From: Bacteroidales bacterium | GTDB lineage: Bacteria > Bacteroidota > Bacteroidia > Bacteroidales > VadinHA17 | Length of the DNA stretch: 64,000 nt | Direction: 5' to 3' | NCBI GenBank assembly: GCA_003142255.1 | Contig: PLLO01000018.1 | Location: forward strand, 193,129 to 257,128 | Part shown: piece after piece, positions 3,271 to 29,014 of the stretch | How positions within the stretch are numbered: the stretch's first letter is position 1 | How the letters are laid out: every line of letters starts with the position of its first letter | Notes under the pieces: generated by a model | What the model saw: the letters and a program-made list of their open reading frames with translations, nothing else | Told to the model about the DNA's origin: nothing | Databases searched by the model: none | Made by a program: the position numbers and the translations under genes

Positions 3271-3434
3271 TTACCGGGAAAGTAATCCGGAACAGGCAGA
3301 AACAAACCTTTAACGGGGTATCGACCACCGTCGACAAGTATTTCGCCTATGATCATGTCGAAAGACTGAAAAGTATCGGATCTAAGATCAATGGAACTGA
3401 CAGCCTGACAATTGCCGCACTTTCTTATAATGAA

Positions 3435-5531: not shown

Positions 5532-5749
5532 ATAGAGTATAAACCTGCCTGGCGTTAAAATCCCTGATCAGTGCCGTTCATACTTCCAGTATCCAATACT
5601 TCACATAGAGCCAGAAAACGCCAAACAGACAAGTTATATGCTGGAAGATGCAATTTCCAGGTGAATCTCATCCGATTTGTTATAAAAAACTGCTATTTTC
5701 ATGCTTAAATTGAGCATTTAAAAGCGATCCTGATACTTTAACACATCAA

Positions 5750-5763
5750 AAAGTTCTTTGAAA
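5750..5763 (+). repeat. Junction 14-mer AAAGTTCTTTGAAA (cassette 2)
   Basis: Exact copy, 54 nt upstream of GTATGATTACGG. Confidence 0.8.
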
Positions 5764-5865
5764 ACACTTCTTTTAAATTAATAAGCAACTGTAAATCTGG
5801 TCTTAGAGATCAATTAGTATGATTACGGTGCAAGATTCTACGATCCGCAAATAGGCAGATGGCAT

Positions 5866-9125: not shown

Positions 9126-9157
9126 CAGAACCTGGTTTACTGCCGGGTTTTTGCTTT
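9126..9157. terminator. Hairpin terminator ending cassette 3
   Basis: AACCTGG..CCGGGTTTTTGCTTTT. Confidence 0.5.
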
Positions 9158-9353
9158 TAATGTAGATTATCTACAGAGGCTGAATATCATATATCATTGT
9201 AATTGAATAGTCATAATCCCCTTTCTGGTCCACTATTTTGATCCTCGCAATGCATTTTTCTTGAATCTTAAAGGGCATACTGATCCAAAAAATCACTATT
9301 TTCACCTTCAGGAACAGCTTTTAAACTAACTTTTCCAACTGTTTCTAAGGTAA

Positions 9354-10715: not shown

Positions 10716-10979
10716 TATAACGCAGCAATATTTTTAATTCTGATTTTTTGAATAAAAGCGTCAAGAGTAAAGAGTAAAGAGTACATGATCCTTCTCTACC
10801 GGTACCATCTTCTCGATATCATTTAATCTCTTGAGCATGCCCGGATCTTTAAGCACATTCTCCTGGCCAGTCTCATTTGGTAAGAAAACCTCGGCTATCT
10901 TTGTGAAATTGCTGAAAAACGTCTATTTTCATGCTTAAATCGAATATTTAGAAGCAATTCTGACACTTTAAACACCTCA

Positions 10980-12284: not shown

Positions 12285-12392
12285 CAACACAGAGTGGCAA
12301 TATTTTAAGCTTTATCTTCTGAATCAGGGCGTCAATGGCAAAGAGAACATGACCCTTCTCTGTTGGTGCCATCTTCTCGATATCATTTAATG

Positions 12393-12710
12393 CTAAATAT
12401 ACCTGGCAGTTTTTTCTTCCCAGATTTTTGGATTACGGTGGGTGCTTATAACTGCCAATACTTCAACAACGTTGGTTTCTTCGTTAATATAGAAATGCAC
12501 CATATATGGGAATTTCTTAATAAGCATACACCGGATATCTTTGTAACGGGTAGCATAAATTTGCGGGTCTTTGCTAAGACTGTTAATTTGTTTTATTGTA
12601 GTCTCAAGAAATCTTTTCCCAAGCTTTGTCAGCGCTTCATTGTACCAGTCAGTAATCCCCTGGATATCTGCGAGTGCTTCCGGATCAATCTTTACTTTAA
12701 ACCTCTTCAT
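12393..12710 (-). CDS. Type II toxin, RelE/ParE family
   Basis: 105 aa. Paired with the upstream small gene by a 1-nt overlap. Typical ParE-like layout (FKVKIDPEALADIQGITDWY..VVEVLAVISTHRNP). Confidence 0.75.
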   Translation of the reverse strand: MKRFKVKIDPEALADIQGITDWYNEALTKLGKRFLETTIKQINSLSKDPQIYATRYKDIRCMLIKKFPYMVHFYINEETNVVEVLAVISTHRNPKIWEEKTARYI

Positions 12711-13299: not shown

Positions 13300-13398
13300 A
13301 TGTATTTTTACGGAGTTAATAACTTGTAAACCAGAAGTGAGTGACCAGATTGGTATGATTACGGAGCAAGATTTTATGATGCCCAGATTGGATGGTGG

Positions 13399-14136
13399 AT
13401 GACCGTGGATCCGCTGGCTGAAACTTTCAGAAAATGGAGTCCGTATACATATGCTGTTGATAATCCAATCAGGTTTATTGATCCTGATGGCATGGGAGTA
13501 AGTTTAGGTGGAGGGCAATACGGAGGTGATTTGTACACTGGTATAGATGCACAAAATTTGTTTAGAGAATTGCAAACTCAATCTATCTCTAATAATCAGG
13601 ATCAGCAAGATGATAAGAAACAGAAAGAGGATAAACCTAATCCAGATGATCATCCTCTAATGAAAAACGCTGTAGAAATGGGATTAATGGCTAAAGATGC
13701 AATAAATTTTTACAGTGATCTATTAGGAGGACCAGAGGGTAGTACTATTGATAAATTAATATTCTGGACTAAGATATATTTGTATGGTAAAATTTTTAGT
13801 CTCTTCGGTGATGCAGCTTCAACTCAAACTGAGGAAATTGCAAATGAAGAAAAACTCTTTAGACCTGGTGGTAAATTAGTTGGTGAACAAATTGGTGAAA
13901 ACCCTCTAATAAGAACTGTAACAAAAGAAGAGGCAGAAAATATAATAAATAATCTAATAAAATGTGGTGCTAAAGCTGTACCAAAACCAGGTTATGAGGG
14001 AACATGGTATGAATTACCAAGCGGAGGTGGATTCGGCGTAAGAAATTCAGTTTCGGACCTATCAAGAAGTTTAGGGAGTTCAAATGCTATAGATCTAGAT
14101 ATTTTGGGAATACCACTTAAAAACATAAAATTTTAA
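13399..14136 (+). CDS. Orphan RHS C-terminal toxin module, cassette 6, unassigned toxin domain
   Basis: Frame opens at 13345 after a TGA: [35 protein letters not shown]. The tail has no motif I can name. Confidence 0.7.
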
Positions 14137-14435
14137 TGGTAAAATTCGTCGATTTTGAGAAGGAATGCATTGAGCATATGGATATTGATTATATGCCACT
14201 CAATGACATAGTTAGAGCAGTTTCTGGCTTTTATCATCGTCCAACAGAAGATGAGTTTTTAACTGCTTTATCTTACCTCATACGTTTAATTGAAAAACAC
14301 CACCTTAAGGTAATAGAAGGTCCAGAAATGAAGGTTACCGAAAAAAAAATAGAAAATCTTTTAGACTGGATAAAACAAAAATGGTATTTAGGTCAGTATG
14401 ATGATATTAATTATGGCATATGGTTTGAAAAATGA
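14136..14435 (+). CDS. Putative immunity protein, cassette 6 (cytoplasmic, 99 aa)
   Basis: TAATG overlap with the toxin stop. No signal peptide. Confidence 0.6.
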   Translation: MVKFVDFEKECIEHMDIDYMPLNDIVRAVSGFYHRPTEDEFLTALSYLIRLIEKHHLKVIEGPEMKVTEKKIENLLDWIKQKWYLGQYDDINYGIWFEK

Positions 14436-14484
14436 ATTATTAATATAAGTGCATAAGGACTGGCCTATATTTATTTTTAATTAA

Positions 14485-14521
14485 AATAACAAAGCCCGGA
14501 TTGTTCCGGGTTTTGTTATTT
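14485..14521. terminator. Hairpin terminator ending cassette 6
   Basis: AATAACAAAGCCCGGA ttgt TCCGGGTTTTGTTATT. Confidence 0.7.
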
Positions 14522-14557
14522 ATAGAACAGCAATATTTTTGATCTTTGAATACTTTA

Positions 14558-14908
14558 TTATTTCACTTTTCTTAGACTTTTAATCCTTGATGGCCTGCGG
14601 TGACCATGAATAATACCAAGAATTACGATTTCGGAAGGTTTTATTTTATAGATAATGAGCCAACTAAGGCAAACAGCTTTACGGTATATTTTCTTAACAG
14701 TAGGAATTTCTTCACACTCACGGAATGCAAGTGGGCTATTTTCGATACGGTCAAAGGTCTTTAAAATCTCATCACCCACATGGATGGCGTTTAAAGGCTC
14801 GTGCATGATGTAGGCAATATAGCCGGTAATGTTATCTAGGTTCTGTAAAGCGTGTTCGGTTACCCTTAACGTATAAGTTTCTCGAGCTTCTTCTTTTGTT
14901 CTGCCCAT
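14558..14908 (-). CDS. Type II toxin, RelE/ParE family
   Basis: 116 aa, YTLRVTEHALQNLDNITGYI..IVILGIIHGHRRP. Overlaps the upstream small gene. Confidence 0.7.
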   Translation of the reverse strand: MGRTKEEARETYTLRVTEHALQNLDNITGYIAYIMHEPLNAIHVGDEILKTFDRIENSPLAFRECEEIPTVKKIYRKAVCLSWLIIYKIKPSEIVILGIIHGHRRPSRIKSLRKVK

Positions 14909-15117
14909 CTTTGTTTGGCATCAGTTATACTCACAGTCGGGGAGTTTTCGGCATACTTTACCCACTTTCTGAAATCTTCTTCGCTTATAGGGTCGCCAGG
15001 CAAAGAATATGAGGTTAAATCCGATTCTTTCAAAATCCTTATTAAATGCTTATCCTCTAGATTCTGCAAAGCTTTTAAAGAATTGTTTGCTGTAAGTTCT
15101 ATTGTTAGTTTTTGCAT
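14866..15117 (-). CDS. Type II antitoxin partner
   Basis: 83 aa, upstream of and overlapping the ParE-like gene. Confidence 0.6.
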   Translation of the reverse strand: MQKLTIELTANNSLKALQNLEDKHLIRILKESDLTSYSLPGDPISEEDFRKWVKYAENSPTVSITDAKQRWAEQKKKLEKLIR

Positions 15118-15306
15118 TGAGATTAAATTTTAACCCTGGCCAACCTGCCTGTTTTTACAAAGATATACTATCAATATTTATAAACAAAGTACTCAGAGCT
15201 GATTCATTTTAAACTACTGTTAATCAAAAGGTCCGATATCGAAGAACTATCCTTTAAGCCTAATTTGTGTTTTATGTAATTATGAGCCTATTTTTTTATT
15301 AACTAA

Positions 15307-16281
15307 ATGAATGATAAAATGGAAAGCCTACTAATTACGCATGAATTTAGTGACGCCAATTTGGATCAGAAATATTCTAACAGGCATCTTGAATTGCGAT
15401 CAGAAGAATTTATCAGCCATATTCATGGTTATGAACAATGGTTGAGGGTTTTGGGATATGCTGCAAGTACAGTTTATAACTTTCCGGCATATCTCAGGGC
15501 ATTTTTATTCTTTCTGGAGAATAAAAATGTTCTGAAGTTAAGCAAGGTTAAATATAATTATGTTAAACAGTTCTTTGCCTATTTGTCTCAAAAAGTAAGT
15601 GAACAGACAGGAAAGCCACTTTCCCGAAATTATCAACTGAATCACCTGAATGCTTTAAAAAGATTCAGCAGGTATTTGTTGGAGTGTCATGGCATATTTC
15701 TGGACTGCACAGCTACAGTTATTAGAAAAATGGTATCTGAAAGAACATGGTTGACCAAAACACAGATAGAGTCTCTTTATTATTCATGTAACTCTGGTAG
15801 CTCGGGAGTTATGAATAGGGCAATACTATCCGTATATTATGGTCTGGGTCTTCGCAGATCAGAAGGTATTGCTTTGGATATAGATGATATTCAGGTTTCA
15901 AATGGGGTAGTTTATATCAGAAAAGGCAAGAATAGCAAAGAACGATATGTTCCAATGAATGACTCTGTCCAAAGGGACATTGGAAAGTACATCTCTCAGG
16001 TGAGGAAGATACTTTTAAATGGCACAAATCATAAAGAGGACAAGGCATTATTCATATCAGAAAGAGGTCAAAGAATTACAGGTAATGCAGTATATGAAAG
16101 ATTGCAGCACCTTGCCCGTTCTGCGGATATTAGTCTTCCTCTTTCCCTACATTCTCTAAGGCATAGTATTGCAACTCACTTACTCAATGCAGGAATGCGA
16201 CTTGAAAACATAAGTATTTTCCTTGGTCACAGTAGTTTGGAAAGTACTCAAATATACACTCATCTTATCCACCAAAAATGA
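15307..16281 (+). CDS. Tyrosine recombinase, XerC/XerD-like (first of a coupled pair)
   Basis: Catalytic boxes GLRRSE, HSLRHSIATHLL and LGHSSLESTQIYTH. Confidence 0.85.
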   Translation: MNDKMESLLITHEFSDANLDQKYSNRHLELRSEEFISHIHGYEQWLRVLGYAASTVYNFPAYLRAFLFFLENKNVLKLSKVKYNYVKQFFAYLSQKVSEQTGKPLSRNYQLNHLNALKRFSRYLLECHGIFLDCTATVIRKMVSERTWLTKTQIESLYYSCNSGSSGVMNRAILSVYYGLGLRRSEGIALDIDDIQVSNGVVYIRKGKNSKERYVPMNDSVQRDIGKYISQVRKILLNGTNHKEDKALFISERGQRITGNAVYERLQHLARSADISLPLSLHSLRHSIATHLLNAGMRLENISIFLGHSSLESTQIYTHLIHQK

Positions 16282-17216
16282 TAATGGCTATGAAAACCTT
16301 TCACAATTACCTTAAAAATAAGGGATTCGCAGTATCGACCATCACTCAACATGAACGGAATATTTCATTGTTCTTTCCCTGGTTATCTGCTAATTCAATT
16401 GATATTAAGCGATGTAACTATTCTGAACTAGTTCGTTTTATTGATGAATCATTAAGTTCAAATCTCATCTTACAGAAGAAACGAAGTCATATCAACAGAG
16501 TCTTGACTTCGATCACTTATTATTTCGATTACTTATCGGAAAGGAATCCCTCAGTTCTTAATCCTGCAAAAAATATCAGAATCAGGAATAATAATAAGAG
16601 ACTCGTACATGATTTATTGGATTATAACGAGCTTATGACACTCTATAAACGGTATATTCCTGAAACTCCAAGGTATGTCAGGAATCAGGTAATATTCGGC
16701 TTTCTGATCTGTCAGGGCATGACAGTCCGTGAATTACATAATTTAAAGTTAAACGATTTAAATCTTCGTGAAGGATCCATTCTCATTCGAGGAGATAATC
16801 CAAGAGCATTAAGAAAAGGAACAACCTCAAGGAAGTTACCGCTTGAAGCAGTCCAGGTAATTGATCTACTGGAATACCTTAAGAATATCCGTTCAAAGAT
16901 TCTTATCGGTAAATATCTGAAAACATCCGGTAGAAAGCCTAAAAGAGGGAATAGGAAGAGAAGAACGGATCAGGTATTATTAAGCATGAATGGATCCCCT
17001 TATCTTAAAAATAGTCTTCATCACCTGTTTATAGATTTGAAAAGATCAAGTTTACAAATAAGAAGTGCACGACAGCTTCGGCAAAGTCTCATTGCTCATT
17101 GGCTAACACAATTTAACCTGAGGAAGGTTCAATATATGGCCGGGCACAGATATGTCAGTAGTACAGAATGGTATAAATATAATACTCCCGTAAACCTGGG
17201 CCAGGGGTTTAGTTAA
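16278..17216 (+). CDS. Tyrosine recombinase-like protein (second of pair); 3' end lies inside the IS3 terminal repeat
   Basis: ATGA overlap with the first recombinase. Boxes TVRELHNL, ARQLRQSLIAHWL (His replaced by Arg/Gln) and MAGHRYVSSTEWY. The last 12 codons fall within the IS left end. Confidence 0.75.
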   Translation: MIMAMKTFHNYLKNKGFAVSTITQHERNISLFFPWLSANSIDIKRCNYSELVRFIDESLSSNLILQKKRSHINRVLTSITYYFDYLSERNPSVLNPAKNIRIRNNNKRLVHDLLDYNELMTLYKRYIPETPRYVRNQVIFGFLICQGMTVRELHNLKLNDLNLREGSILIRGDNPRALRKGTTSRKLPLEAVQVIDLLEYLKNIRSKILIGKYLKTSGRKPKRGNRKRRTDQVLLSMNGSPYLKNSLHHLFIDLKRSSLQIRSARQLRQSLIAHWLTQFNLRKVQYMAGHRYVSSTEWYKYNTPVNLGQGFS

Positions 17217-17242
17217 AAGAAAGAATTAATTTTACTAAACCT

Positions 17243-17557
17243 ATGACAAAACAATCACGACGCAAATTCAGTGCGGACTTCAAGGCCAAAGTTGCCTTAG
17301 AAGCCATTAAAAATCAGAAGACTCTGGCAGAGCTGAGTCAACAGTTTGAGATAAACTCAGTGACGATATCAAAATGGAAGGCCGAGTTTTTAGAGAACAT
17401 GGCAATAATTTTTGAGAATGGACATGAAAAGAAAGTGAATCAGGACTCTCCAGATCTTGACCAACTTTATGCCCAGATAGGGCAACTCAAGGTAGAGAAT
17501 GACTTTTTAAAAAAAAGTGCCAGGAAACTGGGGATATCCGACAACGTATGGAAATGA
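17243..17557 (+). CDS. IS3-family transposase OrfA (HTH)
   Basis: RRKFSADFKAKVALEAIK..LAELSQQFEI plus a leucine-zipper-like end. Confidence 0.85.
   Translation: MTKQSRRKFSADFKAKVALEAIKNQKTLAELSQQFEINSVTISKWKAEFLENMAIIFENGHEKKVNQDSPDLDQLYAQIGQLKVENDFLKKSARKLGISDNVWK
17509..17517 (+). promoter_or_regulatory. Programmed -1 frameshift slippery site A AAA AAA G
   Basis: A8G run in the orfA/orfB overlap. orfB is in the -1 frame and is open from here. Confidence 0.7.
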
Positions 17558-18375
17558 TCAAATCAGATCATAAAGTATTATCTGTGAGGAAGCAATGTGA
17601 TATTCTTTCTGTACCCAGGAGCTCACTTAATTATCAGCCTATCCCGGAAAAGCCTGAGAATGTAAAGATGATGCATCTGATGGATCGGCATCTTTTGACA
17701 CACCAGACCGAAGGAGTGCTCTCCATGGTAGATATGTTAAAGGATCTGGGGCATCCTGTTGGGCCTAAACGCATCAGGCGTTTGTTCAGGCTTATGGGTC
17801 ATCAAACCATTTATCGTAGGAAGAACCTTACTAAAAACGCGTTAAAAGAGTTTATAAAACCTTATTTGCTGCGTGGTTTAAAGATCACTCATGCCAACCA
17901 GGTATGGTGCACTGATATTACTTACATACCAATGGCCAAAGGGTTTATGTATATGACAGCATTTATTGATGTTTACAGCCGCAAGATCGTTGGCTGGGGA
18001 ATCAGTAACAGTATGAGTAAACAATGGTGTCTGGACGTTTTAAATGATGCAATAGCCAGACATGGCAAACCGGAAATCATAAACTCTGACCAGGGATCAC
18101 AATATACAAGCTTTGCCTGGACAAATTATCTGGAAAAAGAAAACATAATGATATCTATGGATGGCAAGGGCCGGGCTACGGATAATGTGTGGATCGAACG
18201 GTTCTGGAAAAGCCTGAAGTATAATTATATTTACCTTAATCCTTGTGATAATGGTTTAGAACTCTTTGAAGGAGTTCAAAACTACATTGAATATTACAAT
18301 CAAAAAAAACATCAAACCATTAAAAAAACTCCCAATGAATCTTATCATGAATCAATTACCAAAAAAGCAGCCTAA
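17548..18375 (+). CDS. IS3-family transposase OrfB (DDE/rve integrase core)
   Basis: WCTDITYIP, NSDQGSQYTS and ERFWKSLK motifs. Confidence 0.85.
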   Translation: MEMIKSDHKVLSVRKQCDILSVPRSSLNYQPIPEKPENVKMMHLMDRHLLTHQTEGVLSMVDMLKDLGHPVGPKRIRRLFRLMGHQTIYRRKNLTKNALKEFIKPYLLRGLKITHANQVWCTDITYIPMAKGFMYMTAFIDVYSRKIVGWGISNSMSKQWCLDVLNDAIARHGKPEIINSDQGSQYTSFAWTNYLEKENIMISMDGKGRATDNVWIERFWKSLKYNYIYLNPCDNGLELFEGVQNYIEYYNQKKHQTIKKTPNESYHESITKKAA

Positions 18376-18593
18376 ATCAAAAAATGTTTAACTTAACAAA
18401 CGATACCTTTGGTACAGGAAATGGGGAGTATTATAAAAGGAAGTAATCTTGATGAACTTAAAAGAGAAATAAATCTTTTTCACCCATTAAAATAGTCATA
18501 TTGGGAAATATGATCTTTAGAATCTGGAAGTCAAAAAAATCTTCTTATCAACATAAATAATCTTAACTTATATTACCTTTAAAAAAAGAAAAT

Positions 18594-18605
18594 AGTTCTT
18601 TGAAA
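18594..18605 (+). repeat. Junction block AGTTCTTTGAAA (cassette 7, compressed junction)
   Basis: GAAAATAGTTCTTTGAAATAGATTGGTACGATTACGG. The block is only 8 nt from GTACGATTACGG. Confidence 0.75.
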
Positions 18606-18631
18606 TAGATTGGTACGATTACGGCGCAAGG

Positions 18632-19348
18632 ATGTACGATCCACAAATAGGTAGATTTACTACCATTGATCCGTTAGCAGATAAATTCCCTTCGATGACT
18701 ACTTTTCAATATGCAAGTAACAATCCTGTTGTTTGTATTGACCTTGATGGACTTGAAGGATATAAAATAACCACAAAAGAGATACAGACTGGAACAACTA
18801 ATGTAAAATTCACTATAGATATGAAAGTTGTAAATGCCTCTTCAGCTTCTAATAGTGATGTAAGAAGGTGGGCTGAATCTTCTAAAGCACAAATAGAAGC
18901 ATCATTTAGTGGTTTTGATAAAAACACTAACAAAAATTATTCATCTAATGTTAATTTTAATTTTGATGAAAATAGCAAACTGGGTGAAAGCTTTGTATTA
19001 AAATATGTTGACTTAGTTCATGGTACTGATGCTCAAGGGAGACCGGATACAGAGATGGATGGTTATGCTAAAGAAATAGGAAATCCTAATAATAATGAAT
19101 TTCAAGTTCTAATTCCAGGTAAAGCTGCTGCAAATTGGGCTGAAAAGGTAACTGAAGAGGGAGTAGCCGAGACAGCAACACATGAACTAGGTCATGGGCT
19201 TGGATTAAGGCATCAACCTGAAAGTGACCCTAAGAACAATATAAATATAGATGCTTATAATCTTATGTATACTGGTAGATATGGAACAAAAATCACAAAT
19301 GAACAGCTTAAATCTATAGAAGAAATCCTACCTGAAAAAAGGAAGTAA
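18632..19348 (+). CDS. Orphan RHS C-terminal toxin module, cassette 7, zinc metallopeptidase (HExxHxxGxxH)
   Basis: [38 protein letters not shown]. The tail has THELGHGLGLRH. Confidence 0.8.
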   Translation: MYDPQIGRFTTIDPLADKFPSMTTFQYASNNPVVCIDLDGLEGYKITTKEIQTGTTNVKFTIDMKVVNASSASNSDVRRWAESSKAQIEASFSGFDKNTNKNYSSNVNFNFDENSKLGESFVLKYVDLVHGTDAQGRPDTEMDGYAKEIGNPNNNEFQVLIPGKAAANWAEKVTEEGVAETATHELGHGLGLRHQPESDPKNNINIDAYNLMYTGRYGTKITNEQLKSIEEILPEKRK

Positions 19349-19367
19349 GACATTAAAAATCAATCTC

Positions 19368-19817
19368 ATGTATCTACTAAAAGGTTATATATCCACTGGA
19401 TTATTGAAAATAATTACTTTTTTCCTTTTTTTTTCACTGCTAAATTGTGATAGGCAGGAAGATAATAACTACCATGTTAAAATACAATACCTCATTAGTA
19501 TTGATAAAAATAGTATTGATAGGAGATATGGTATAGTGACATTATCTTTTCCTTCTTATTACGATAAAGACACTCTTTTACTGGAAGTGAATAAAAAAAA
19601 GTTTCTGAAAGAAGTTATTAATACAAGTGAAATAACGGGGAGTGCACTTATTGTTGCAATAGATTCGGTTAATAAAGTAAATGAAATTGGCATTAAGATC
19701 AACAATATGAAGAAAGTGTTTTTTAAGTGTAATTGGGAAAATCAACTTTTTATTATAAAGCTTAAAAAAGATAGCTTGTTTATAAATGGAGTAACTTCTT
19801 TTCCTACTCCCCGTTAA
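19368..19817 (+). CDS. Putative immunity lipoprotein, cassette 7
   Basis: Hydrophobic leader ending LLNC, 20 nt after the toxin stop. Confidence 0.55.
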   Translation: MYLLKGYISTGLLKIITFFLFFSLLNCDRQEDNNYHVKIQYLISIDKNSIDRRYGIVTLSFPSYYDKDTLLLEVNKKKFLKEVINTSEITGSALIVAIDSVNKVNEIGIKINNMKKVFFKCNWENQLFIIKLKKDSLFINGVTSFPTPR

Positions 19818-20502: not shown

Positions 20503-20709
20503 ATGATGATAAAATCTAAAGGTTCAAGGAAAAATTCTGTTTTGTCGACTAAAGAACCAGAACAGAAAAGAAAGGGTAGTACAAAAAAGCGGAAACTTTA
20601 CCCGGTTCAGGATGAAGGTATTTTACCCATTCCTGATGATTATCCTGAAGGAATTAAATATATACTAAACAGCACAAAAAATCAACTTATCGGGAAAACA
20701 TTACCCTAA
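20503..20709 (+). CDS. Hypothetical small basic protein
   Basis: ORF only, 68 aa, lysine-rich N-terminus. Confidence 0.3.
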   Translation: MMIKSKGSRKNSVLSTKEPEQKRKGSTKKRKLYPVQDEGILPIPDDYPEGIKYILNSTKNQLIGKTLP

Positions 20710-20763
20710 TGTGCGGAGTTTGTTGGAGAAGTGCCATTTTTATGCGTGTTATTGAAGAATTGA

Positions 20764-21051
20764 CTATTCTAAGTCAGCTTCGAAATGAACAATAGCTTTT
20801 TCTAGTTCATTTGCATCTATTGAATTTAGGTAGCCTGCGATGGCTTCCTCAATAATATCCTTAATTTGCTTTCGCTCCCAGTAGGCAATTGCTTTAATTG
20901 TTTTATACGTTTTTCTGCTCAGCAAAAGCGTTGTTCGTTGTATTTTATCATCATTATCCTCCGGCGTTTTGATAAATTCCTCTTTTAACAAATGTGTTTC
21001 GGTAGGGGAGAAGATATCCTGAAAGCTATGGGTAAACTGTTTCTTTGCCAT
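20764..21051 (-). CDS. Small protein downstream of ParA, candidate centromere-binding partner
   Basis: 95 aa, directly downstream of parA with an iteron cluster between them. Function inferred from position only. Confidence 0.45.
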   Translation of the reverse strand: MAKKQFTHSFQDIFSPTETHLLKEEFIKTPEDNDDKIQRTTLLLSRKTYKTIKAIAYWERKQIKDIIEEAIAGYLNSIDANELEKAIVHFEADLE

Positions 21052-21070
21052 TTGTTCATTTTTTTATTTT

Positions 21071-21124
21071 GTATTCTACGTATTACTCAGTAATATGGGT
21101 AATATGAGTAATATTGATAATATC
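21071..21124. repeat. Iteron cluster (GTATTACT palindrome plus tandem GTAATATGn 9-mers)
   Basis: GTATTACTcAGTAATAT followed by GTAATATGG GTAATATGA GTAATATTGA TAATATC. Confidence 0.65.
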
Positions 21125-21142
21125 TGTTATAGAAATAAAATA

Positions 21143-21898
21143 CTACTTCTCAAATCGGTTGAAGAACTCCATACAAAGGTGAGAGTAATCAATCGCACCT
21201 AAAGAATTTTTAGAATATCGAAAGATATCCTGTCCTGATGCAGGGGCTTCAGCTATCGAAATGTTATCTCTGATTTTCGTATCAAAAACAAGATCTGCGA
21301 ACCGGGAATTGGTAAATTCAACCACATCACGACTAAGGACTGTGTTCTTCTTGTACATGGTAATGATTATTCCTCCAATCGAGAGTTCTGGATTTAACCT
21401 CTCTTTGACCTTGTCGATAATCTCCATTAGCTTTGCTAAGCCCTGGCTTGCCAGGTAATGTGCTTGTAGTGGAATCAGTACCTTTTCAGCTGCATTTAGG
21501 GCATTCACAGTCATCAGCCCCAATGAAGGGGGACAATCACAGAAAATGTAATCATAATCATTTTGAGTTTTAAGAAGTAACCTCTTAAGAAGATTTTCTC
21601 TACCAGGTTCCATTGAGAGTTCTAGCTCTGCTCCTGAAAGATTCATATTCGATGGTGCTAACCAGAGGTTGTCGATTATTGGTACTTCCGGGATTGGACA
21701 TTGACCTTTTAACGCATTATACATGCTTGGCTCGGCTTCCTTAATCCCAAAACTATGGGATAAATTACCTTGAGGGTCAAGATCAACCAGAAGCACTCTT
21801 CTTTTCATCAAGGCTAATCCTGCACCAAGATTAACGGTTGTGCTAGTTTTGGCAACACCCCCTTTGTGGTTGCTGATAGCGAAGATTTGTGGTTTCAT
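21143..21898 (-). CDS. parA: ParA/Soj-family partition ATPase
   Basis: Deviant Walker A NHKGGVAKTSTTVNLG, 251 aa. Confidence 0.9.
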   Translation of the reverse strand: MKPQIFAISNHKGGVAKTSTTVNLGAGLALMKRRVLLVDLDPQGNLSHSFGIKEAEPSMYNALKGQCPIPEVPIIDNLWLAPSNMNLSGAELELSMEPGRENLLKRLLLKTQNDYDYIFCDCPPSLGLMTVNALNAAEKVLIPLQAHYLASQGLAKLMEIIDKVKERLNPELSIGGIIITMYKKNTVLSRDVVEFTNSRFADLVFDTKIRDNISIAEAPASGQDIFRYSKNSLGAIDYSHLCMEFFNRFEK

Positions 21899-21911
21899 AG
21901 ATTCATGTTTG

Positions 21912-21973
21912 GGTTATTAATATGATCGGTATTACTGATATGCTTTGTATTATTGATATTATTAGTATTACTT
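21912..21973. repeat. Iteron cluster upstream of parA (GTATTACT/GTATTATT units)
   Basis: GTATTACT at 21929, GTATTATTGATA at 21947 and GTATTACTT at 21965. Same 8-mer family as 21071-21124. Confidence 0.6.
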
Positions 21974-22003
21974 ATTATTCATTGAGCAAAAAAAACTAAT
22001 TTC

Positions 22004-23014
22004 TTAAAGCGAACCTGCGTTTAAAGCAGTTGTTATTACCTTTTTACCAATGTCCAATACAATTTTAGAAGGGTTGTAAGTGTAGTTAATGGCTTTTATA
22101 CAATTTCTGGCTCCTGGTACCTGTCTGAATGCAGCTGAGAGTACTTCCAACGGATCTTTGGATTTAGTTAAGCCTGAAATTACATTGACAACCCTTACTC
22201 CATTCCTATACTCTTTTACCAATGGAACGTCTCTAACCATATTCAAAGCAACATTTTTGGCAGTATTTCTCATTTGGTTTTTCATGGTATGGTAGTGAGA
22301 AAAAGTAAGATGTTGAGACCTCTTATAGTCAAAAGTTGAATCAAAGCTTTTCTCACAGGTTTTTACGAATTTAATCCTGTCAAATCCTATCTGAGCTTCT
22401 TTACCTTTAACCCTGTTTTTGGCATTCCGGGCATTGGCCATAGGACTAAGCTTTATTTTATTAGATAAATCCTTTCGGGATACAATTATGTGAATGTGGG
22501 TTTGTAGACCTTCCTTCCTGTCACCGCATTTATTAAGTCCTTCTCTTACCTCCTCGCAATCCCTTCCATAGTACCGATTGTGCTCAATTTTTCCGAAATA
22601 TAAAATGTTATCCCCTGTTAACCCCCGGTTAAAATTCTTTGCATACTCATTCATTACGACTCTGGAATACTCTTTTAGCGCTTCTTCAAACCGTTTAAGT
22701 TCTCTTGTTGTAAGTTGAGAAATATTTCCAATATTCCTTCCTGAAATGGATCGGCAGATATGTTTTTGTTCTACCGGGCTCGGATTTACCGTTAGCATAT
22801 AAAACTTTGATTCATCCTTGCAAAGCTTCGCACGATTGGAGTCAATAGAATTCTGAACGGTAAAAGCAGAAATATCATGATTATCCTGATTGAAGAACTT
22901 CTGATGATCCAGCACGTCATTCTTTTTAAGGTTCTCCTTCTCTAAATAGTTAACCAGGTCATGACTGCTATTTCTGTTATTATCCTTCTTATCGGAATGT
23001 ATCTTTATGTACAT
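22004..23014 (-). CDS. Mobilization relaxase, Bacteroidota MobB/BtgB-like
   Basis: 336 aa, HTHIHIIVSRKD histidine motif, downstream of and overlapping a BtgA-like gene. Confidence 0.7.
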   Translation of the reverse strand: MYIKIHSDKKDNNRNSSHDLVNYLEKENLKKNDVLDHQKFFNQDNHDISAFTVQNSIDSNRAKLCKDESKFYMLTVNPSPVEQKHICRSISGRNIGNISQLTTRELKRFEEALKEYSRVVMNEYAKNFNRGLTGDNILYFGKIEHNRYYGRDCEEVREGLNKCGDRKEGLQTHIHIIVSRKDLSNKIKLSPMANARNAKNRVKGKEAQIGFDRIKFVKTCEKSFDSTFDYKRSQHLTFSHYHTMKNQMRNTAKNVALNMVRDVPLVKEYRNGVRVVNVISGLTKSKDPLEVLSAAFRQVPGARNCIKAINYTYNPSKIVLDIGKKVITTALNAGSL

Positions 23015-23618
23015 GGGATAACTTTTTTATGTATTCTTTATATTCTCTTATATCGGCCATAGGCAACTCGATCACTGGCATTTTTCTTAGTCCGGTAGAT
23101 TTTTCTTCTGTCTTAGACAGCACATTATCGAAATATTTCAGAGTTGTGCTTTGAATTAGCTCCAGTTTTTCGATTTTATTTTTCAGATCATTTTTCTCAT
23201 CTATAGCATCCTCTATGGTTTTAGAACTTTGGGTGTTTATGAGGTCCTTTTTTTCTTCAGAATTGTCGTTAAGTAACAAGGATTTACTTTTGGTTTGTAT
23301 TCCGATATCTCCTCTCCTGGGAGCTTCATTATCGATATATTCCTTCATCCGGACTATAAGAGTATCCATTTTCCCGAAAGTGGGAAGAATGAAATCCTTC
23401 TCCTGTTTTCGCATGAACGATATTATAGTATCTCTGAATTTATTCAGCTCTTCAGCGACAGTTAAAACCTTTACATCCTGTGGATTTAACCCTGTTTTCT
23501 CGAAGTAATAAACCATTTTTTCTACAAGATCTACCTTGCTCATTTCAAACTTATTAGCAAGTCTATCAATAGATATTTTACTCTTTGGATTTACATTTAA
23601 TGTCTCATATTTTGCCAT
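22989..23618 (-). CDS. BfmA/BtgA-family mobilization (oriT-binding) protein
   Basis: N-terminus MAKYETLNV..ISIDRLANKFEMSKVDLVEKMVYYFEKTGLNP, coiled-coil C-terminus, located upstream of the relaxase. Confidence 0.65.
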   Translation of the reverse strand: MAKYETLNVNPKSKISIDRLANKFEMSKVDLVEKMVYYFEKTGLNPQDVKVLTVAEELNKFRDTIISFMRKQEKDFILPTFGKMDTLIVRMKEYIDNEAPRRGDIGIQTKSKSLLLNDNSEEKKDLINTQSSKTIEDAIDEKNDLKNKIEKLELIQSTTLKYFDNVLSKTEEKSTGLRKMPVIELPMADIREYKEYIKKLSHVHKDTFR

Positions 23619-23738
23619 AAATAGTTATTTTATAGTAATGTTTTTGATTCAAAAGGGCCAATTTTATTGAGGACCGATAAATAAATAGTTATTTAAATAG
23701 TTATTGTTATTTTTCTAATGTTTTTATAATCAGTCACT

Positions 23739-23779
23739 CTTGGGCAAAGCCCCAAGGTCGATTCGGGCTCTGCCCGAAT
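23739..23779. other. Candidate oriT hairpins
   Basis: CTTGGGcaaagcCCCAAG and ATTCGGGCtctGCCCGAAT are adjacent. They lie in the gap between the mobilization and primase genes, preceded by AAATAGTTATT repeats. Confidence 0.4.
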
Positions 23780-23857
23780 CCATCTTGCTTTCCTTTGGAA
23801 ACCTTCCTGTTTTCAAACAACTCAATGAATGATAGGTATTGTTATAAGGTTTTAGCA

Positions 23858-24343
23858 TTAAATATTATTTTTATCTGCCAGGTTATATCCGTAAATCCCT
23901 TTTTGCTTAATGCGCTTATATCCAAGCATTTTTAGAGTCTTACCAATTTGTACGTGATTAATTCTGAATTGGTTGTCTGTTGAGCTATTAATAATTTGCA
24001 TTATTTCAGTTGGTGTCATAAAACCATTCCCAATCGTCCCATTATCAAGGTACTTTTCTAAAAGCTCTCTTTCAATAGTTAAAACTTGAAAATCTTTGTT
24101 TCGTTTTTCATTCTCTCGAATTTCTTCGCCAGTTAAGTGGTAGTTGAATGTTCCGCTTTTGAAAAGGTAGTAAGCCTGAGCATAAACTTTATCGATATCA
24201 ATAGTGGTTTTATAGTCCCAATCAATTGAATCAATCTCAAAACAAAGCCAGCGAACTGATCCTGTCTCATCTGAAAGAAATTCATTTTGATTTGTACTGC
24301 CAATAAAGCTGCATCTGCGGAGTATTATGGTTGCATTTCTTCC
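23858..24343 (-). pseudogene. C-terminal continuation of the primase/VirE-like gene, separated by an in-frame TAG
   Basis: Same frame as 24344-25867. Reads GRNATIILRRCSFIGSTNQNEFLSDETGSVRWLCFEIDSIDWDY..GKTLKMLGYKRIKQKGIYGY. Confidence 0.7.
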
Positions 24344-25867
24344 CTAGGGAAGCCTTTCGTTTATCATTGTTTTACTGAAGTAAGCTTTAAGTGAATTCAG
24401 ATCACTTCGACCCATTAATGCAAGTTCATCCAGATTTATTAATAAGTTTTTTGCTAATAATATTCTTGAATCCTTATCGGTTGATATGTTTTCAGCAATG
24501 TACTTTGATAGTGCAGGGGGACATAAAAATCTACAAAAAGTTGACTTACCTGTATTTTGGTTTTCTCCAATTAATATTAGAGCTTGTTTGTTATAATAAT
24601 CAGACAAAAGTGCACAAGCAACAACTCTTACAATCCATTTCTTAAAGTGATTATTAAATGCTGTCTGGTCCTTTGCTTTGATGTGATTAGCAAGTTTTTC
24701 AATATAATCCATACCATCCCAGGCACTTAGATTCTTGAAGTATTCTTCGAACGGATCATATGAAATGACAAAATCAGATTTGAGTAAAGCATAAAGAGTA
24801 TTAATGCTTAGTGAGAATCCTTTGATGAGTAATTCTACAAACAGTGTATTTTCATTTAGTAGTTTAAATTTGCCCGGATTTTCTTTTAATCTATACTCGA
24901 TTCCAAGGCTGACAGTATTAAAGCGAATCTCATACTTAGCTAGGATATAATCTATAATTCTAGTAATTTGTGATATATGTCCAACTTCTTTGTTCTCTTG
25001 TTTTGTTTGCTTTACGGTAAATCCATGAAGTTTGGCAAAGTGAAAGAAGGTTTTACCTGTAATACCATCACCATTTGATTTAAAGCAAGCTTCTATTTGG
25101 TTCTCTGTGTCGAGATATGAATAACCATGATAAAAAATACTTACACGATGGATATATTCTTTGCTCTCATCTCCAAAAATGCATCTCAAAGAATAGATAA
25201 TTTTGATCCAGTTATTATAATTTTCGGTGATGTCAATACTCTTTTTTTCTATTTCTTCTATTAACCAGATAGCTTCAAGTTGTTGCTGATTGTAATTGTT
25301 TTTTCTTTTCGGATAACTATCTATTCTATCAAAAACTAAAGAATTTGGGTTGAAGCGAAGATCCTGATCAAAACTCATGAACATTAACCTGGTAATGTCC
25401 TTACATGATAAATCAATAACCTGCTTGTATTTTTCCTGAAAATATTTTGCAATTGATTCAGCTTGCAATGCCTGAAGTTTAATGTCAGGAATAATTTTTA
25501 TTGTACCCTTAAGCTTCTCACTGGGAGATAAAAAACATGAATGAATAAGAGGGTCTTTCGATAGTTCTTCTTTTAATTGATAAGCATCAGTAGGTTTAAT
25601 ATCATCAATATCGACTTGTATCAATCCGGAATGGCATAAAACATCTGATGCTTTATGTGAACCATTTGTAGTACAACTAATAGTAGATGCGGGCAACTTA
25701 CGCTTAAGGAAATCCCTTTCTTTCTTGTCAATCGTGGAACGAATTTTAAGTATTTGCTTTGCCCATTTCCCGTTCCTTATGTCATTCAAAAGAATTTCAA
25801 TTGGTATATCCGCTGTCTTTTGTTTTGAAATAACTGAATCGAAGAAAGATACAATATGCTCATCCAT
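24344..25867 (-). CDS. VirE-type DNA primase / P-loop protein of mobile elements (N-terminal 2/3, ends at an in-frame TAG)
   Basis: ORF 24344-25939. Likely start is MDEHIVSFFD at 25867. P-loop GENQNTGKST. Ends ..INERLP then TAG. Confidence 0.75.
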   Translation of the reverse strand: MDEHIVSFFDSVISKQKTADIPIEILLNDIRNGKWAKQILKIRSTIDKKERDFLKRKLPASTISCTTNGSHKASDVLCHSGLIQVDIDDIKPTDAYQLKEELSKDPLIHSCFLSPSEKLKGTIKIIPDIKLQALQAESIAKYFQEKYKQVIDLSCKDITRLMFMSFDQDLRFNPNSLVFDRIDSYPKRKNNYNQQQLEAIWLIEEIEKKSIDITENYNNWIKIIYSLRCIFGDESKEYIHRVSIFYHGYSYLDTENQIEACFKSNGDGITGKTFFHFAKLHGFTVKQTKQENKEVGHISQITRIIDYILAKYEIRFNTVSLGIEYRLKENPGKFKLLNENTLFVELLIKGFSLSINTLYALLKSDFVISYDPFEEYFKNLSAWDGMDYIEKLANHIKAKDQTAFNNHFKKWIVRVVACALLSDYYNKQALILIGENQNTGKSTFCRFLCPPALSKYIAENISTDKDSRILLAKNLLINLDELALMGRSDLNSLKAYFSKTMINERLP

Positions 25868-25868
25868 A

Positions 25869-26141
25869 TTATAAGTTCGATTTATTGGCTTCAAGGATCT
25901 GATCAATATCGGCACTTGAATAATAAATGGTTTTTCCAATTTTTGTGAAAGGGAGTTCTTTGTTGTTCCTTAGCTGCTGCTGTTTCCCTTTAGAAATTCC
26001 AAAAAGATCTTCAATATCTTTAGTCTTGTACCACTTCCTGGAGAATTCAAGAGTTTTACTGCTTATAAGTTGTTCGAACTTATTTTGCAAATTAGTTTCA
26101 AGCAACTTAAAATCGTCTTTGGTCACAAATTCAACATTCAT
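25869..26141 (-). CDS. Helix-turn-helix DNA-binding protein, excisionase-like
   Basis: 90 aa, WYKTKDIEDLFGISKGKQQQLRNNKELPFTKIGKTIYY. Sits between the integrase operon and the primase. Confidence 0.65.
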   Translation of the reverse strand: MNVEFVTKDDFKLLETNLQNKFEQLISSKTLEFSRKWYKTKDIEDLFGISKGKQQQLRNNKELPFTKIGKTIYYSSADIDQILEANKSNL

Positions 26142-26193
26142 AATTGAAATGATTTAAGTTTATTTTGTGTCCGAAAGGTATATTAGAATCGAT

Positions 26194-26227
26194 AAAAAAA
26201 AGCTATCGATGATTGTCGATAGCTTTT
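26194..26227 (-). terminator. Strong hairpin terminator after the int-membrane gene pair
   Basis: AAAGCTATCGA tgattg TCGATAGCTTT with flanking A/T runs. Confidence 0.75.
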
Positions 26228-26269
26228 ATAATAATCAGATATACTGAATTATGTGTTAGAAATGAGGGT

Positions 26270-27313
26270 CTATATTTTTTTTAACAAATTGTTCTTTATA
26301 GATGAAATATTAAGTTCATCTGGTATTTTAGGATTGCCTTTCCCATTATTTTCAAAATAAAAATATAAAATCCCTAATAGTTTAAATTCTTGTACCATGC
26401 TTCCTGCTAGTATAAATCTGTAATTTTCAAATATGTTTTTTATGGTATTTATTCCACAATTATATATTTTATAATCATTAATATCACAACTCCCCCGAAT
26501 CTTTAATGCAAAGCGTATTTTTCTCAATATATCTTCATCGATCATATAATCATTCTCATTCTTTGTTGTTTTAACCGTTCCACTTTTTTTACCTATTAGT
26601 TCTGCAATTGCTTTATGCCAATTACCTATTTCATTATTTGACTTATTATAATCGAAAAATGTATTTTCTAATAAGCAGAAAAATGGGAGATAGCTTTTTG
26701 TAGTTCTTCTTCTGAAAAGATCTTCTAAAAAATTTATTTTTATAACAACTTGTTTGGCAGGTAACTGTTCTATAAGGATTTCTTTTTTAATTATATTATT
26801 TTCTGACGGAATCTCATTTGAAATTTTATTATAAAGAGATTCTTTGGTCTTGTTCATTTCATTATAAGATGTACTCTTAATGCTTAACAGTAGTATTGAA
26901 ACGATAGTAAAAGCAGATACTTGAAATGAAATATAAGTGATTGTTAAGATGTAAGAAATAATGTTCTCTGAGATAAATGTTAATAATGCTACTGTGAGAA
27001 TAGCAAAGGCAAAAAACAATTTTATTGTCAATTTCAACCTTCTAGAACATTTCTCGAACTCTCTCTCATCAAACTTATTAAATATTTCTTGATAAATATT
27101 AAATATTAACTTACTGTCCAAAAAGATAGCTATAAATAGCGGCAGAAAAAACCCTACCTCAATCTTTAAGAGTAATGGAATTTTACTCAGTTGAAGAAAG
27201 TAGATGCAAAAACCTATTAATAACAATGTTAAGCCATTAAGGATTTTGTAATTATTTAACCTAGATTCAATTTGTAATTGAAAAATTTCAATCAGCCTTA
27301 GATTGCTTTTCAT
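26270..27313 (-). CDS. Unknown polytopic membrane protein with soluble C-terminal domain, co-transcribed with the integrase
   Basis: 347 aa with about 4-5 hydrophobic spans in the first 170 aa. Overlaps the integrase 3' end by 26 nt. Very AT-rich. Confidence 0.6.
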   Translation of the reverse strand: MKSNLRLIEIFQLQIESRLNNYKILNGLTLLLIGFCIYFLQLSKIPLLLKIEVGFFLPLFIAIFLDSKLIFNIYQEIFNKFDEREFEKCSRRLKLTIKLFFAFAILTVALLTFISENIISYILTITYISFQVSAFTIVSILLLSIKSTSYNEMNKTKESLYNKISNEIPSENNIIKKEILIEQLPAKQVVIKINFLEDLFRRRTTKSYLPFFCLLENTFFDYNKSNNEIGNWHKAIAELIGKKSGTVKTTKNENDYMIDEDILRKIRFALKIRGSCDINDYKIYNCGINTIKNIFENYRFILAGSMVQEFKLLGILYFYFENNGKGNPKIPDELNISSIKNNLLKKI

Positions 27314-28520: not shown

Positions 28521-28678
28521 TCTATAATTTTATATCATTTTCTTCTATCCAAAACCTTCTTACCCATATTATGGCATTGATATTTAATTAACTATATGAG
28601 TTCGGGGTAAGATAGGGTAACTTTTAAAAAAATCAAGTTACCCTATTCAAACCCGCTGTATATGGTGTTTATAGCATT

Positions 28679-28706
28679 TCGGGTAAGATGGGTAAGTGAT
28701 TTTTAC
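28679..28706. repeat. Island-end inverted repeat (right copy)
   Basis: TCGGGTAAGATGGGTAAGTGATTTTTAC is the reverse complement of 1838-1865 (27/28). GGGTAAGATAGGGTAAC lies nearby at 28607. Confidence 0.7.
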
Positions 28707-28880
28707 GCCTATAGGAAACATATTTTTTTCATTATTTTGTAATACTATTATTCACAACAATCATATTTACAATGCTATATTGTACAATTCGGTTACCTGT
28801 TTTCATTTTTACTTATGAGGTAACCGATCAGGCGAATATAAACTAACATTATTTGATATAAAATGAATTCAAAGATAAAT

Positions 28881-28916
28881 AAAAAACCTCAATGGATCAA
28901 CACATTGAGGTTTTTT
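28881..28916. terminator. Bidirectional hairpin next to attR
   Basis: AAAAAACCTCAATG gatcaaca CATTGAGGTTTTTT. Confidence 0.6.
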
Positions 28917-28939
28917 GAAATAGAATGTTTTTCTATTCA

Positions 28940-28962
28940 GTGGAGATTAAGGGAGTCGAACC
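28940..28962. repeat. attR: 23-bp direct repeat inside the tRNA-Ala 3' end
   Basis: Identical to 1695-1717. Confidence 0.85.
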
Positions 28963-29014
28963 CTTGTCTTGTGACTGCGAGTCACATACTCTAACCAACT
29001 GAGCTAAATCCCCC
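28941..29014 (-). tRNA. tRNA-Ala: tRNA-Ala (anticodon CGC)
   Basis: Reverse complement is GGGGGATTTAGCTCAGTTGGTTAGAGTATGTGACTCGCAGTCACAAGACAAGGGTTCGACTCCCTTAATCTCCA. It folds as a cloverleaf with anticodon loop CTCGCAG and a G3:U70 pair. CCA is not encoded. Confidence 0.9.

Follow-up and report, generated by a model that had tools for sequence, protein, structure and literature searches.

A tyrosine recombinase pair with one degenerate active site embedded in the RHS toxin-tip arrays of Bacteroidota

Arrays of the rAID-1 type, described in Bacteroidales, consist of a 5′ XerD-like recombinase gene and co-oriented, low-GC orphan immunity genes with repeated intergenic motifs (10.1101/471110; 10.1101/2025.05.03.651265). 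The recombinase at the 5′ end is required to be at least 44% identical to BF9343_RS08045, and active gene acquisition has been proposed, not shown, for these arrays (Ross et al., bioRxiv 10.1101/471110). XerC/D genes beside polyimmunity loci were noted by Zhang et al. 2012, and a 2026 preprint places Xer-dependent systems beside polyimmunity loci in Xenorhabdus and Photorhabdus. For RHS (rearrangement hot spot) genes, the gain of toxin tips and the growth of orphan arrays have so far been explained mainly by horizontal transfer and homologous recombination. The Rhs C-terminal displacement model of Jackson et al. 2009 and the orphan Rhs/CdiA-CT modules of Poole et al. 2011 reportedly rest on these two processes, with no dedicated recombinase. 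Here, a stretch of 64,000 nucleotides (nt) from a Bacteroidales bacterium of the VadinHA17 group (contig PLLO01000018.1, positions 193,129 to 257,128; referred to as the window) was analysed for two adjacent tyrosine recombinase genes, rec1 and rec2, that lie within an array of RHS toxin tips.

The pair belongs to a large Bacteroidota family of two-recombinase mobile modules that occur almost only inside RHS-tip arrays. The family is apparently undescribed; no description of a recombinase pair in RHS-tip arrays was found in the literature, nor any paper combining 'XerD-like' with 'Rhs', and rAID-1 is the closest described system. We consider it probable that the pair provides the recombination core for a mobile module which is specific for RHS toxin arrays of Bacteroidota and targets the RHS core/tip junction. 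As judged from sequence comparison, the module probably inserts and displaces toxin/immunity cassettes.

The recombinase pair, its family and the surrounding array

The first gene, rec1 (15307-16281, plus strand), encodes a XerD-like tyrosine recombinase of 324 amino acids. The rec2 open reading frame (ORF), as read in the window (16278-17216, 312 amino acids), follows in the same direction with an ATGA overlap. Both products match PF00589 (rec1 E 5.8e-42, 143.8 bits; rec2 E 3.5e-12, 46.9 bits; cut-off 27.1), in agreement with the initial annotation of this DNA, in which they were read as co-directional, overlapping XerC/D-like genes. The canonical catalytic boxes assigned there to the first recombinase were confirmed by alignment to E. 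coli XerD (1a0p), where every catalytic position of rec1 is aligned. R183, K208, H282, R285, H308 and Y317 form a full catalytic set and are invariant across 113 relatives, in which all seven catalytic positions compared are unchanged.

The second gene (codons 1-300, 16278-17177, plus strand) encodes a divergent tyrosine recombinase that lacks the full set. It had been credited with two arginines, a histidine and the tyrosine; alignment to XerD bears out Arg268, His290 and Tyr299, whereas the first arginine (Arg-I) is replaced by Thr149 and the histidine of the second box (His-II) by Arg265. The Arg-I stretch GMTVREL of rec2 is aligned to GLRVSEL of XerD, and the arginine of TVRE stands two residues off and is not conserved. 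Arg-I is threonine or serine in 109 of 114 relatives, with His-II variable. Among 145 representatives of clusters at 50% identity, Arg-I is arginine in only 19 and His-II is histidine in none, and Arg-II, His-III and Tyr are kept in 140-141. The two proteins are about 23% identical and are therefore old paralogues. In alignments, the N-terminal end conserved in rec2 falls on the third in-frame ATG (16290), which is probably the conserved start; the start within the ATGA overlap is possible and not conserved. In relatives, the two genes are spaced by gaps of 2-8 nt or overlap by 8-50 nt.

The region around the pair is low in GC (33-36%) and is an RHS orphan-tip array. Each cassette opens with a conserved core-end segment, the head (WYDYGARxYDPxxGRxxxxDP). 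Eight heads were found, all on the plus strand, at 4452, 5818, 7555, 9421, 11048, 13354, 18614 and 20231. The first of these lies, together with a tip, inside a 5′-truncated RHS gene of 598 amino acids (3435-5231, plus strand), which scores 57.5 bits with TIGR03696 (E 1.5e-15; cut-off 32.5); this match and the eight co-oriented heads place the region among RHS arrays. Six heads are upstream of the pair and two (18614 and 20231) downstream, as had been counted for the cassettes.

The rec2 family was surveyed in the 80 loci listed by an alignment-based scan of metagenome contigs, in which more than 470 candidates were confirmed. A contig scan with a single protein query gave only three close relatives, and the alignment-based scan was needed to reveal the family, which comprises 798 clusters at 50% identity in a full HMMER scan (E up to 1e-30). 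Among the 80 loci, rec1 is directly 5′ of rec2 in 54 of the 57 with room; in the exceptions (L035, L036 and L077) the rec1 match is absent or non-adjacent. The 80 loci contain 81 RHS heads, all on the recombinase strand and none opposite. A head is found downstream within 3 kb in 22 of 25 loci and within 5 kb in 14 of 14, and 24 of the 26 loci of at least 8 kb have one. It had been asked whether homologues might fail to be enriched next to such arrays; enrichment is what was seen. Nine loci of 45-79% identity (L001, L005, L007, L008, L011, L012, L014, L016 and L017) have adjacent rec1 and rec2 genes co-oriented with RHS heads, the heads having been scanned in all but L017, whose array comes from gene calls only. 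A phage or plasmid origin was rejected: 2.9 million viral contigs contained no relative, and plasmids gave only two weak matches at 26-29% identity.

The same data bear on the possibility that the pair was left behind by a recombinase-in-trio (RIT) or Tn554-like element, or is a housekeeping XerC/XerD pair that lies in the array by chance. XerC and XerD are indeed the nearest curated NCBIfam families for both proteins, and adjacent tyrosine recombinase genes are a feature of RIT and Tn554. The scores, however, stay far under the XerC/XerD cut-offs (TIGR02224/TIGR02225: rec1 168.6/167.5 bits, rec2 83.1/81.0; cut-offs 335/330) and under that of the integron integrase IntI (TIGR02249/NF011946: rec1 101.3, rec2 23.7 bits; cut-off 265), and rec2 is without Arg-I and His-II. 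A RIT needs three consecutive tyrosine recombinases and flanking inverted repeats. The module has only two recombinase genes, with a third in 0 of about 90 loci, and the pair is not bounded by inverted repeats of its own as a self-contained transposon would be. Its 5′ neighbour is either a minus-strand toxin-antitoxin pair or, in most of the more distant loci, a primase gene, which is directly 5′ of rec1 in 23 of the 30 with room. Tn554 carries TnpA, a much longer TnpB and a small TnpC. Compared by architecture only, products of 324 and 318 amino acids and the lack of a conserved third gene do not fit this arrangement. With the strict association with RHS heads in addition, such an origin is close to refuted, and the RIT and Tn554-like remnants put forward in the initial annotation are not supported.

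In the window, rec2 is interrupted by an insertion sequence (IS) of the IS3 family (17178-18435, plus strand), which had been missed when the gene was taken to end at 17216. The element consists of a left inverted repeat (17178-17214), orfA (17243-17557), orfB (17548-18375) and a right inverted repeat (18399-18435). The orfA/orfB product scores 227.4 bits against the NF033516 cut-off of 160, the 37-nt terminal repeats are 70% identical, and the target duplication is the 3 bp AAA (17175-17177 and 18436-18438). The left repeat begins one codon past the codon of the catalytic tyrosine. The annotated end at 17216 is an artefact, and the last 12 residues as read (YNTPVNLGQGFS) are IS-encoded. The displaced native 3′ end, K followed by GSNLDELKREINLFHPLK and the stop, is at 18436-18495 on the plus strand, with the last 18 codons at 18439-18492. 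Removal of 17178-18435 and one AAA copy gives a restored ORF ending in STEWYKGSNLDELKREINLFHPLK; this tail is conserved in relatives and is present in an uninterrupted protein of 318 amino acids (P0121) that is 97% identical. Contigs L018-L024 are 94-97% identical to the window over 14508-17177 (L024: 14558-17177) and again from 18436, the match resuming at 18426 in L022 and L023, and all of them are without the IS stretch. The interrupted allele with its tail YNTPVNLGQGFS is also seen in public metagenome contigs (P0139). Because the IS3 element replaced the conserved C-terminal 18 residues, of which His315 and Pro316 are nearly invariant across the family, rec2 of the window is probably non-functional. 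A fragment 76% identical to the right end of the window IS3 element (18307-18435) was also seen in the RHS array of L011 (8483-8609, minus strand), where it adjoins helix-turn-helix (HTH) and Fic genes 5′ of the recombinase pair.

Several observations concern the array itself. The RHS gene at 3435-5231, which is without its 5′ part, adjoins, within the stretch 2479-3435, a gene for type II secretion system protein F (T2SSF), itself truncated (235 amino acids, minus strand, PF00482). In L011 a full-length T2SSF gene sits at the far end of the array instead. The arrangement suggests that a rearrangement or deletion took away the N-terminal part of RHS. In three heads, at window positions 9439, 11066 and 18632, the variable residue of GAR-x-YDP is methionine (ARMYDP), which provides an in-frame ATG for the orphan tip, and the ORFs begin exactly at this ATG; the other heads have phenylalanine. 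In several heads the W codon is mutated to a stop (TAG). In L005, a Bacteroidales contig of 549 kb, the last elements of the array are a separator and no more than the beginning of a head (18103-18201). The similarity to window positions 5748-5846 stops within the head, about 750 nt before the gene of a large PKD/SprB/CHU_C protein (start at 18949), and the segment looks like a truncated head at the array end.

Beyond the array, window positions 20700-29013 are occupied by a separate integrative, mobilisable-looking element adjoining a tRNA-Ala gene (28940-29013, minus strand). It encodes ParA (21143-21898), a DUF5712 protein (22004-23014), a VapE-like/BT4734-like protein (24344-25939) and an integrase with an arm-binding domain (27288-28520). 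This integrase, earlier regarded as the island's own, belongs to the tRNA-Ala element. Near 29 kb, the GC content rises from about 32% to 45%. Because no long ORF follows the last head (20231), this element may have cut the array.

Module boundaries and the junction with the RHS head

The window module (about 14508-18606) stands where an ordinary separator, about 300 nt long, would otherwise lie. It is a reduced version, with no primase gene and with a ParE toxin-antitoxin pair in addition to rec1 and rec2. The ParE-family toxin gene (14558-14908, minus strand; PF05016, E 6.6e-10) is overlapped by that of a putative antitoxin of 83 amino acids (14866-15117, minus strand). The ParE pair is colinear with the recombinase pair in L008, L018, L019 and L024; in other clades its position is held by AbiEii, Fic/HTH, HTH or other minus-strand genes. 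A second ParE-family toxin gene (12393-12710, minus strand) occurs in another inter-cassette separator of the window, with no adjoining recombinase, and a 61-nt repeat of 84% identity is shared by two separators (10767-10827 and 12331-12391).

The module boundaries were located by comparison with related contigs. Identity of 96% with L018/L019 begins at the left end TTTTGTTATTTATAGAACAGC (14508-14557, plus strand), in or just past a hairpin, spans the ParE pair, rec1 and rec2, and stops abruptly behind TAGTTCTTTGAAA at 18606, where 8 nt remain to the W codon of the following head. Sequence like the left end is also present in ordinary separators and in L014, and L024 is without 42 nt of it. 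The right end is formed by AGTTCTTTGAAA (18594-18605, plus strand), directly 3′ of which lies the synteny breakpoint with four related contigs. The modules of the window, L018, L022 and L024 are at least 95% identical and are followed by four different cassettes. In all four, the downstream junction follows AGTTCTTTGAAA directly, no more than 8 nt ahead of the W codon. Near-identical modules also have differing upstream cassettes, with the breakpoint at the hairpin (14484-14521), whose two halves co-vary with the upstream cassette. In the window, the cassette directly 5′ of the module (13354-14521, plus strand) consists of the head from 13354, a tip ORF (13399-14136), a putative immunity ORF (14136-14435) and this terminator-like hairpin. 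The cassette directly 3′ of it (18614-19817, plus strand) consists of the head at 18614, a tip ORF with weak metallopeptidase matches (18632-19348) and a putative immunity ORF (19368-19817).

The right-end sequence AGTTCTTTGAAA recurs in the array, with seven exact plus-strand copies in the window. Six copies, at 5752, 7489, 9356, 10982, 13288 and 20165, are located 65-66 nt before the heads at 5818, 7555, 9421, 11048, 13354 and 20231, respectively; the seventh, at the module, is 20 nt before its head. About one copy is expected by chance, and the total of 8 matches, which includes one minus-strand match with one mismatch, was reached in 0 of 100 shuffles. Over all loci, the motif (at most one mismatch) is present within 150 nt 5′ of 44 of 87 heads, and in 29 of these it stands at -64 to -72. 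The cross-genome similarity of the cassette 5′ parts begins at the motif. It could be a recombinase-binding element of the right end of modules and separators, or a promoter element for the orphans. The motif AAAAAGTTCTTTGAAAAC could also be a relic of RHS codons for N-K-Y-L-Y-N, which its DNA resembles, but the frame differs, the spacing is 65-66 nt as against 48 nt, and stop codons intervene between motif and head.

The head DNA shows uneven codon use. GAT encodes the first Asp in 80 of 85 cases as against 52 of 85 at a later Asp, and TAC encodes the second Tyr in 66 of 86 cases as against 23 of 86 at a later Tyr. This skew suggests a constraint on the DNA itself, and it is suggestive only, because the sequences are related to each other.

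Two further candidates were rejected. An inverted motif copy 5′ of rec1 (15236-15250, compared with 18592-18606) was considered as a second site; it is probably due to chance, because it is not conserved in L001 or L005. The ordinary separators were considered as decayed modules. An nhmmer profile of 13 separators matched only the left end (hairpin and TTATAGA...) of two modules (E 4e-05 and 1e-04) and gave no match to the rec2 3′ end, and no relics of rec1 or rec2 were detected elsewhere in the window by tblastn.

The variable cassettes at a fixed junction could be attributed to a resident, integron-like platform, in which the pair is stationary and an attI-like site just 3′ of rec2 serves it for the capture, excision or reshuffling of free tip and immunity cassettes, so that the cassettes move and the module does not. 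Such a platform would account for the presence of one module among many cassettes in the window-type clade, for the differing cassettes directly 3′ of rec2 in four near-identical modules with one fixed junction, and for the conserved motif at a fixed distance before every cassette; the rAID-1 arrays of Bacteroidales offer an analogy. However, the upstream neighbour is equally variable. The motif is 65-66 nt before ordinary heads and 20 nt before the head at the module, and a simple motif-by-motif exchange therefore fails to give the observed junctions. No attC-like element was demonstrated, and in a larger clade every cassette has a full module, with recombinase genes contained in the circle-closing units described below. 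We regard a resident platform as unlikely.

Fuller relatives, circle-closing contigs and a proposed mechanism

The primase of the more distant loci has either DnaG zinc-ribbon and Toprim domains or a MTBMA_p00010-like domain. In the fuller relatives, a minus-strand gene for a repressor-like HTH protein lies 5′ of the primase gene. In L014/L015, a full RHS gene is followed by three units in the order tip, immunity gene, minus-strand HTH gene, primase, rec1, rec2 and small genes. Two of these units share a 7.5-kb repeat of 93% identity, which starts past the hairpin that follows the immunity gene and is broken off about 10 nt short of the next head. The same tandem pattern of modules was seen in an isolate, Hufsiella ginkgonis. 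In its genome, a direct repeat of 101 nt (97% identity) brackets 13 kb with two modules, one copy lying inside the RHS ORF and the other 5′ of the third tip. Such a repeat would be expected to remain as a scar where a circular element bearing a copy of the RHS core end had integrated and pushed the old tip aside.

Exact terminal overlaps were found in L041 (127 nt), L079 (107 nt) and L100 (123 nt), which close into circles of 8.8-10.8 kb. Closing L041 and L079 restores intact primase ORFs of 923 and 984 amino acids, respectively. L093 has a near-terminal repeat of 126 nt. Each of these four units (8.5-10.8 kb) contains the module with exactly one head, one tip and one immunity gene. They may be free circles or perfect tandem copies. 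Matched pairs of a circle and an integrated copy were sought for mapping of the attachment site, and the best pairs did not exceed about 89% identity.

Other repeats and small genes were seen in these relatives. L091 has a 140-nt direct repeat of 99% identity (1-140 and 9127-9266), about 400 nt 3′ of rec2, which sits in two adjacent and otherwise different units of a tandem array. SymE-like toxin genes are located 5′ of the primase gene in the Hufsiella modules (L016, 7318-7518 and 14049-14255), and ORF6N (KilA-N-like) genes recur 3′ of rec2 in several clades (L005, 14276-14824; L011, 13971-14333; L016, 10998-11543). The SymE-like and ORF6N genes may have a regulatory function in the elements.

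Several of these features would also be expected of a selfish integrative element for which the conserved RHS head, present in many copies, is simply a safe place to land, which has no role in the supply or exchange of toxins and whose linked tips are only passengers of the target. The insertion point is strict relative to the heads with both flanks variable, addiction modules (ParE, AbiEii and Fic) adjoin the pair, and the fuller elements have a primase and a repressor-like gene. Against this, every circle-closing unit has exactly one head, tip and immunity gene, and the Hufsiella repeat begins inside the RHS ORF, so that the insert supplies the tip now fused to the core. A purely selfish role is a rather remote alternative.

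For the favoured interpretation, a module that recombines at the RHS core/tip junction, the following mechanism is proposed. The full element would be 8.8-10.8 kb long and contain a minus-strand HTH gene, a primase gene, the rec1-rec2 pair, some small genes and a single head with its tip and immunity gene. Acting as a heteromer, rec1 and rec2 would recombine the right end of the module and its head with the head region of an RHS gene or orphan. Integration would take place at or just 5′ of the conserved head DNA (TGG TAY GAT TAC GG...), that is, at the RHS core/tip boundary. On integration of the circular element, its own tip would be fused to the resident RHS core, and the former tip and immunity gene would be pushed downstream as an orphan; repeated events would build the array. 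Blocks could also be cut out or reordered if any two heads recombined with each other. In this scheme rec1 would be the catalytic subunit. Its obligate partner rec2, with a degenerate active site, would be architectural or contribute only part of a site, and perhaps only one strand pair would be exchanged, with the junction resolved by replication, for which the primase of the full elements may be relevant. Precedents for a one-strand exchange are Xer-dependent integration of CTX phage and integron attC recombination.

A heteromeric recombinase acting on cassettes had been suggested in the initial annotation. What holds of this suggestion is the link to the cassettes, homologous pairs being embedded almost always in co-oriented RHS-tip arrays; the heteromer, the recombination, its site and the direction of events are what we infer from the arrangement of these loci. 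A broader proposition would be that Bacteroidota carry small, possibly self-replicating integrative elements which a heteromeric recombinase, with one catalytic and one degenerate subunit, inserts at the RHS core/tip boundary, each insertion swapping the toxin in frame and archiving the old toxin and immunity genes downstream. This we put forward tentatively, as a possibility somewhat short of even.

Several points weigh against the proposed role of the module. Neither a recombination event nor an empty site was seen, nor was any excised circle of the window type. The upstream cassette is not stably linked to the module; since it varies too, it is not simple cargo, and a second exchange point or homologous recombination would be needed. 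Seven of the eight window heads have no adjoining recombinase, and the separators are without rec relics. Most orphan heads have stop codons just 5′, between motif and head, and an in-frame fusion therefore needs a crossover within the head or immediately beside it. Similar scars could be made by homologous recombination over the conserved head (about 100 nt), which could contribute. By sequence comparison the recombination site can be placed within the junction region and no more exactly, and no convincing dyad resembling a Xer-like 11-6-11 site was recognised by eye at the right junction. The circle-closing units could be perfect tandem copies instead of free circles. As to the window copy itself, it is probably dead, a fossil, because the IS3 element replaced the rec2 tail and the RHS gene is 5′-truncated.

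A widespread dedicated module at the tip junctions would give a concrete and testable mechanism for the turnover of toxin and immunity genes in Bacteroidota. If the proposal is true, the 'rearrangement hot spots' of Bacteroidota RHS genes would be products of programmed site-specific recombination and not only of homologous recombination, and the module would link RHS arrays to the still unexplained rAID-type arrays. The pair would be a natural tyrosine recombinase pair with one partner lacking two catalytic residues family-wide, and the elements could be usable for in-frame payload insertion into a conserved gene. Annotations as 'XerD' within RHS arrays should not be equated with housekeeping Xer genes.

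Comparison with known systems

The rAID-1 arrays and the module are found in the same phylum, and in both a XerD-like recombinase adjoins a co-oriented, low-GC array of short genes that is tied to interbacterial toxins and has intergenic motifs. The differences, compared by architecture, are several. A single recombinase stands at the 5′ end of rAID-1 arrays, whereas the module has two in mid-array, one of them with a degenerate active site. The rAID-1 arrays consist of orphan immunity genes, and the module arrays of units of RHS head, toxin and immunity gene behind an RHS gene. Unlike rAID-1, fuller relatives of the module have a primase and close into circles. The window does not have the rAID-1 architecture of a single recombinase followed by at least two co-oriented, low-GC orphan immunity genes.

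With the Rhs displacement (PMC2935791) and orphan (PMC3150448) models, the module would share the entry of new tips at the conserved core end, the downstream displacement of the old tip and immunity gene, and short core-end repeats before the orphans. It differs from them in its dedicated recombinase pair, which is located at the junctions and seems to move together with the tip. Integrons likewise have a tyrosine recombinase beside a one-directional, promoterless-looking cassette array with a variable first cassette position. The module, in contrast, scores under the IntI cut-off and has two recombinases, no attC has been shown, and its cassettes are gene fragments that need fusion to the RHS core.

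The XerC/XerD heterotetramer is also built of two paralogous Xer-like subunits. In Xer-dependent CTX integration catalysis is carried out by one subunit only, and replication resolves the junction. The module genes differ in that they are not housekeeping genes, are operon-linked, have the degenerate subunit fixed family-wide and, in some relatives, are accompanied by a primase.

Aux3, a mobile effector module of the type VI secretion system of V. cholerae, is a genetic element whose movement depends on site-specific recombination (Santoriello et al. 2020, PMC7721734). It resembles the module as an effector and immunity pair on an element of this kind. Aux3 is reportedly prophage-like and has a single integrase together with a directionality factor. 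It inserts in the form of a whole cluster, whereas the module would insert into a toxin gene.

Integrative islands that insert into the 3′ end of a gene, typically a tRNA gene, and carry a copy of that end share several of the proposed features. They use a tyrosine recombinase, their attachment site duplicates the 3′ segment of the target so that the target stays intact, and they have flanking direct repeats (101 nt in Hufsiella for the module) and tandem accretion at one site. The target of the module, however, would be a protein-coding toxin gene, the rebuilt 3′ end would be a new toxin, and two recombinases take the place of one integrase. On this reading, the module family would consist of integrative elements that act site-specifically and renew the 3′ end of the gene they target.

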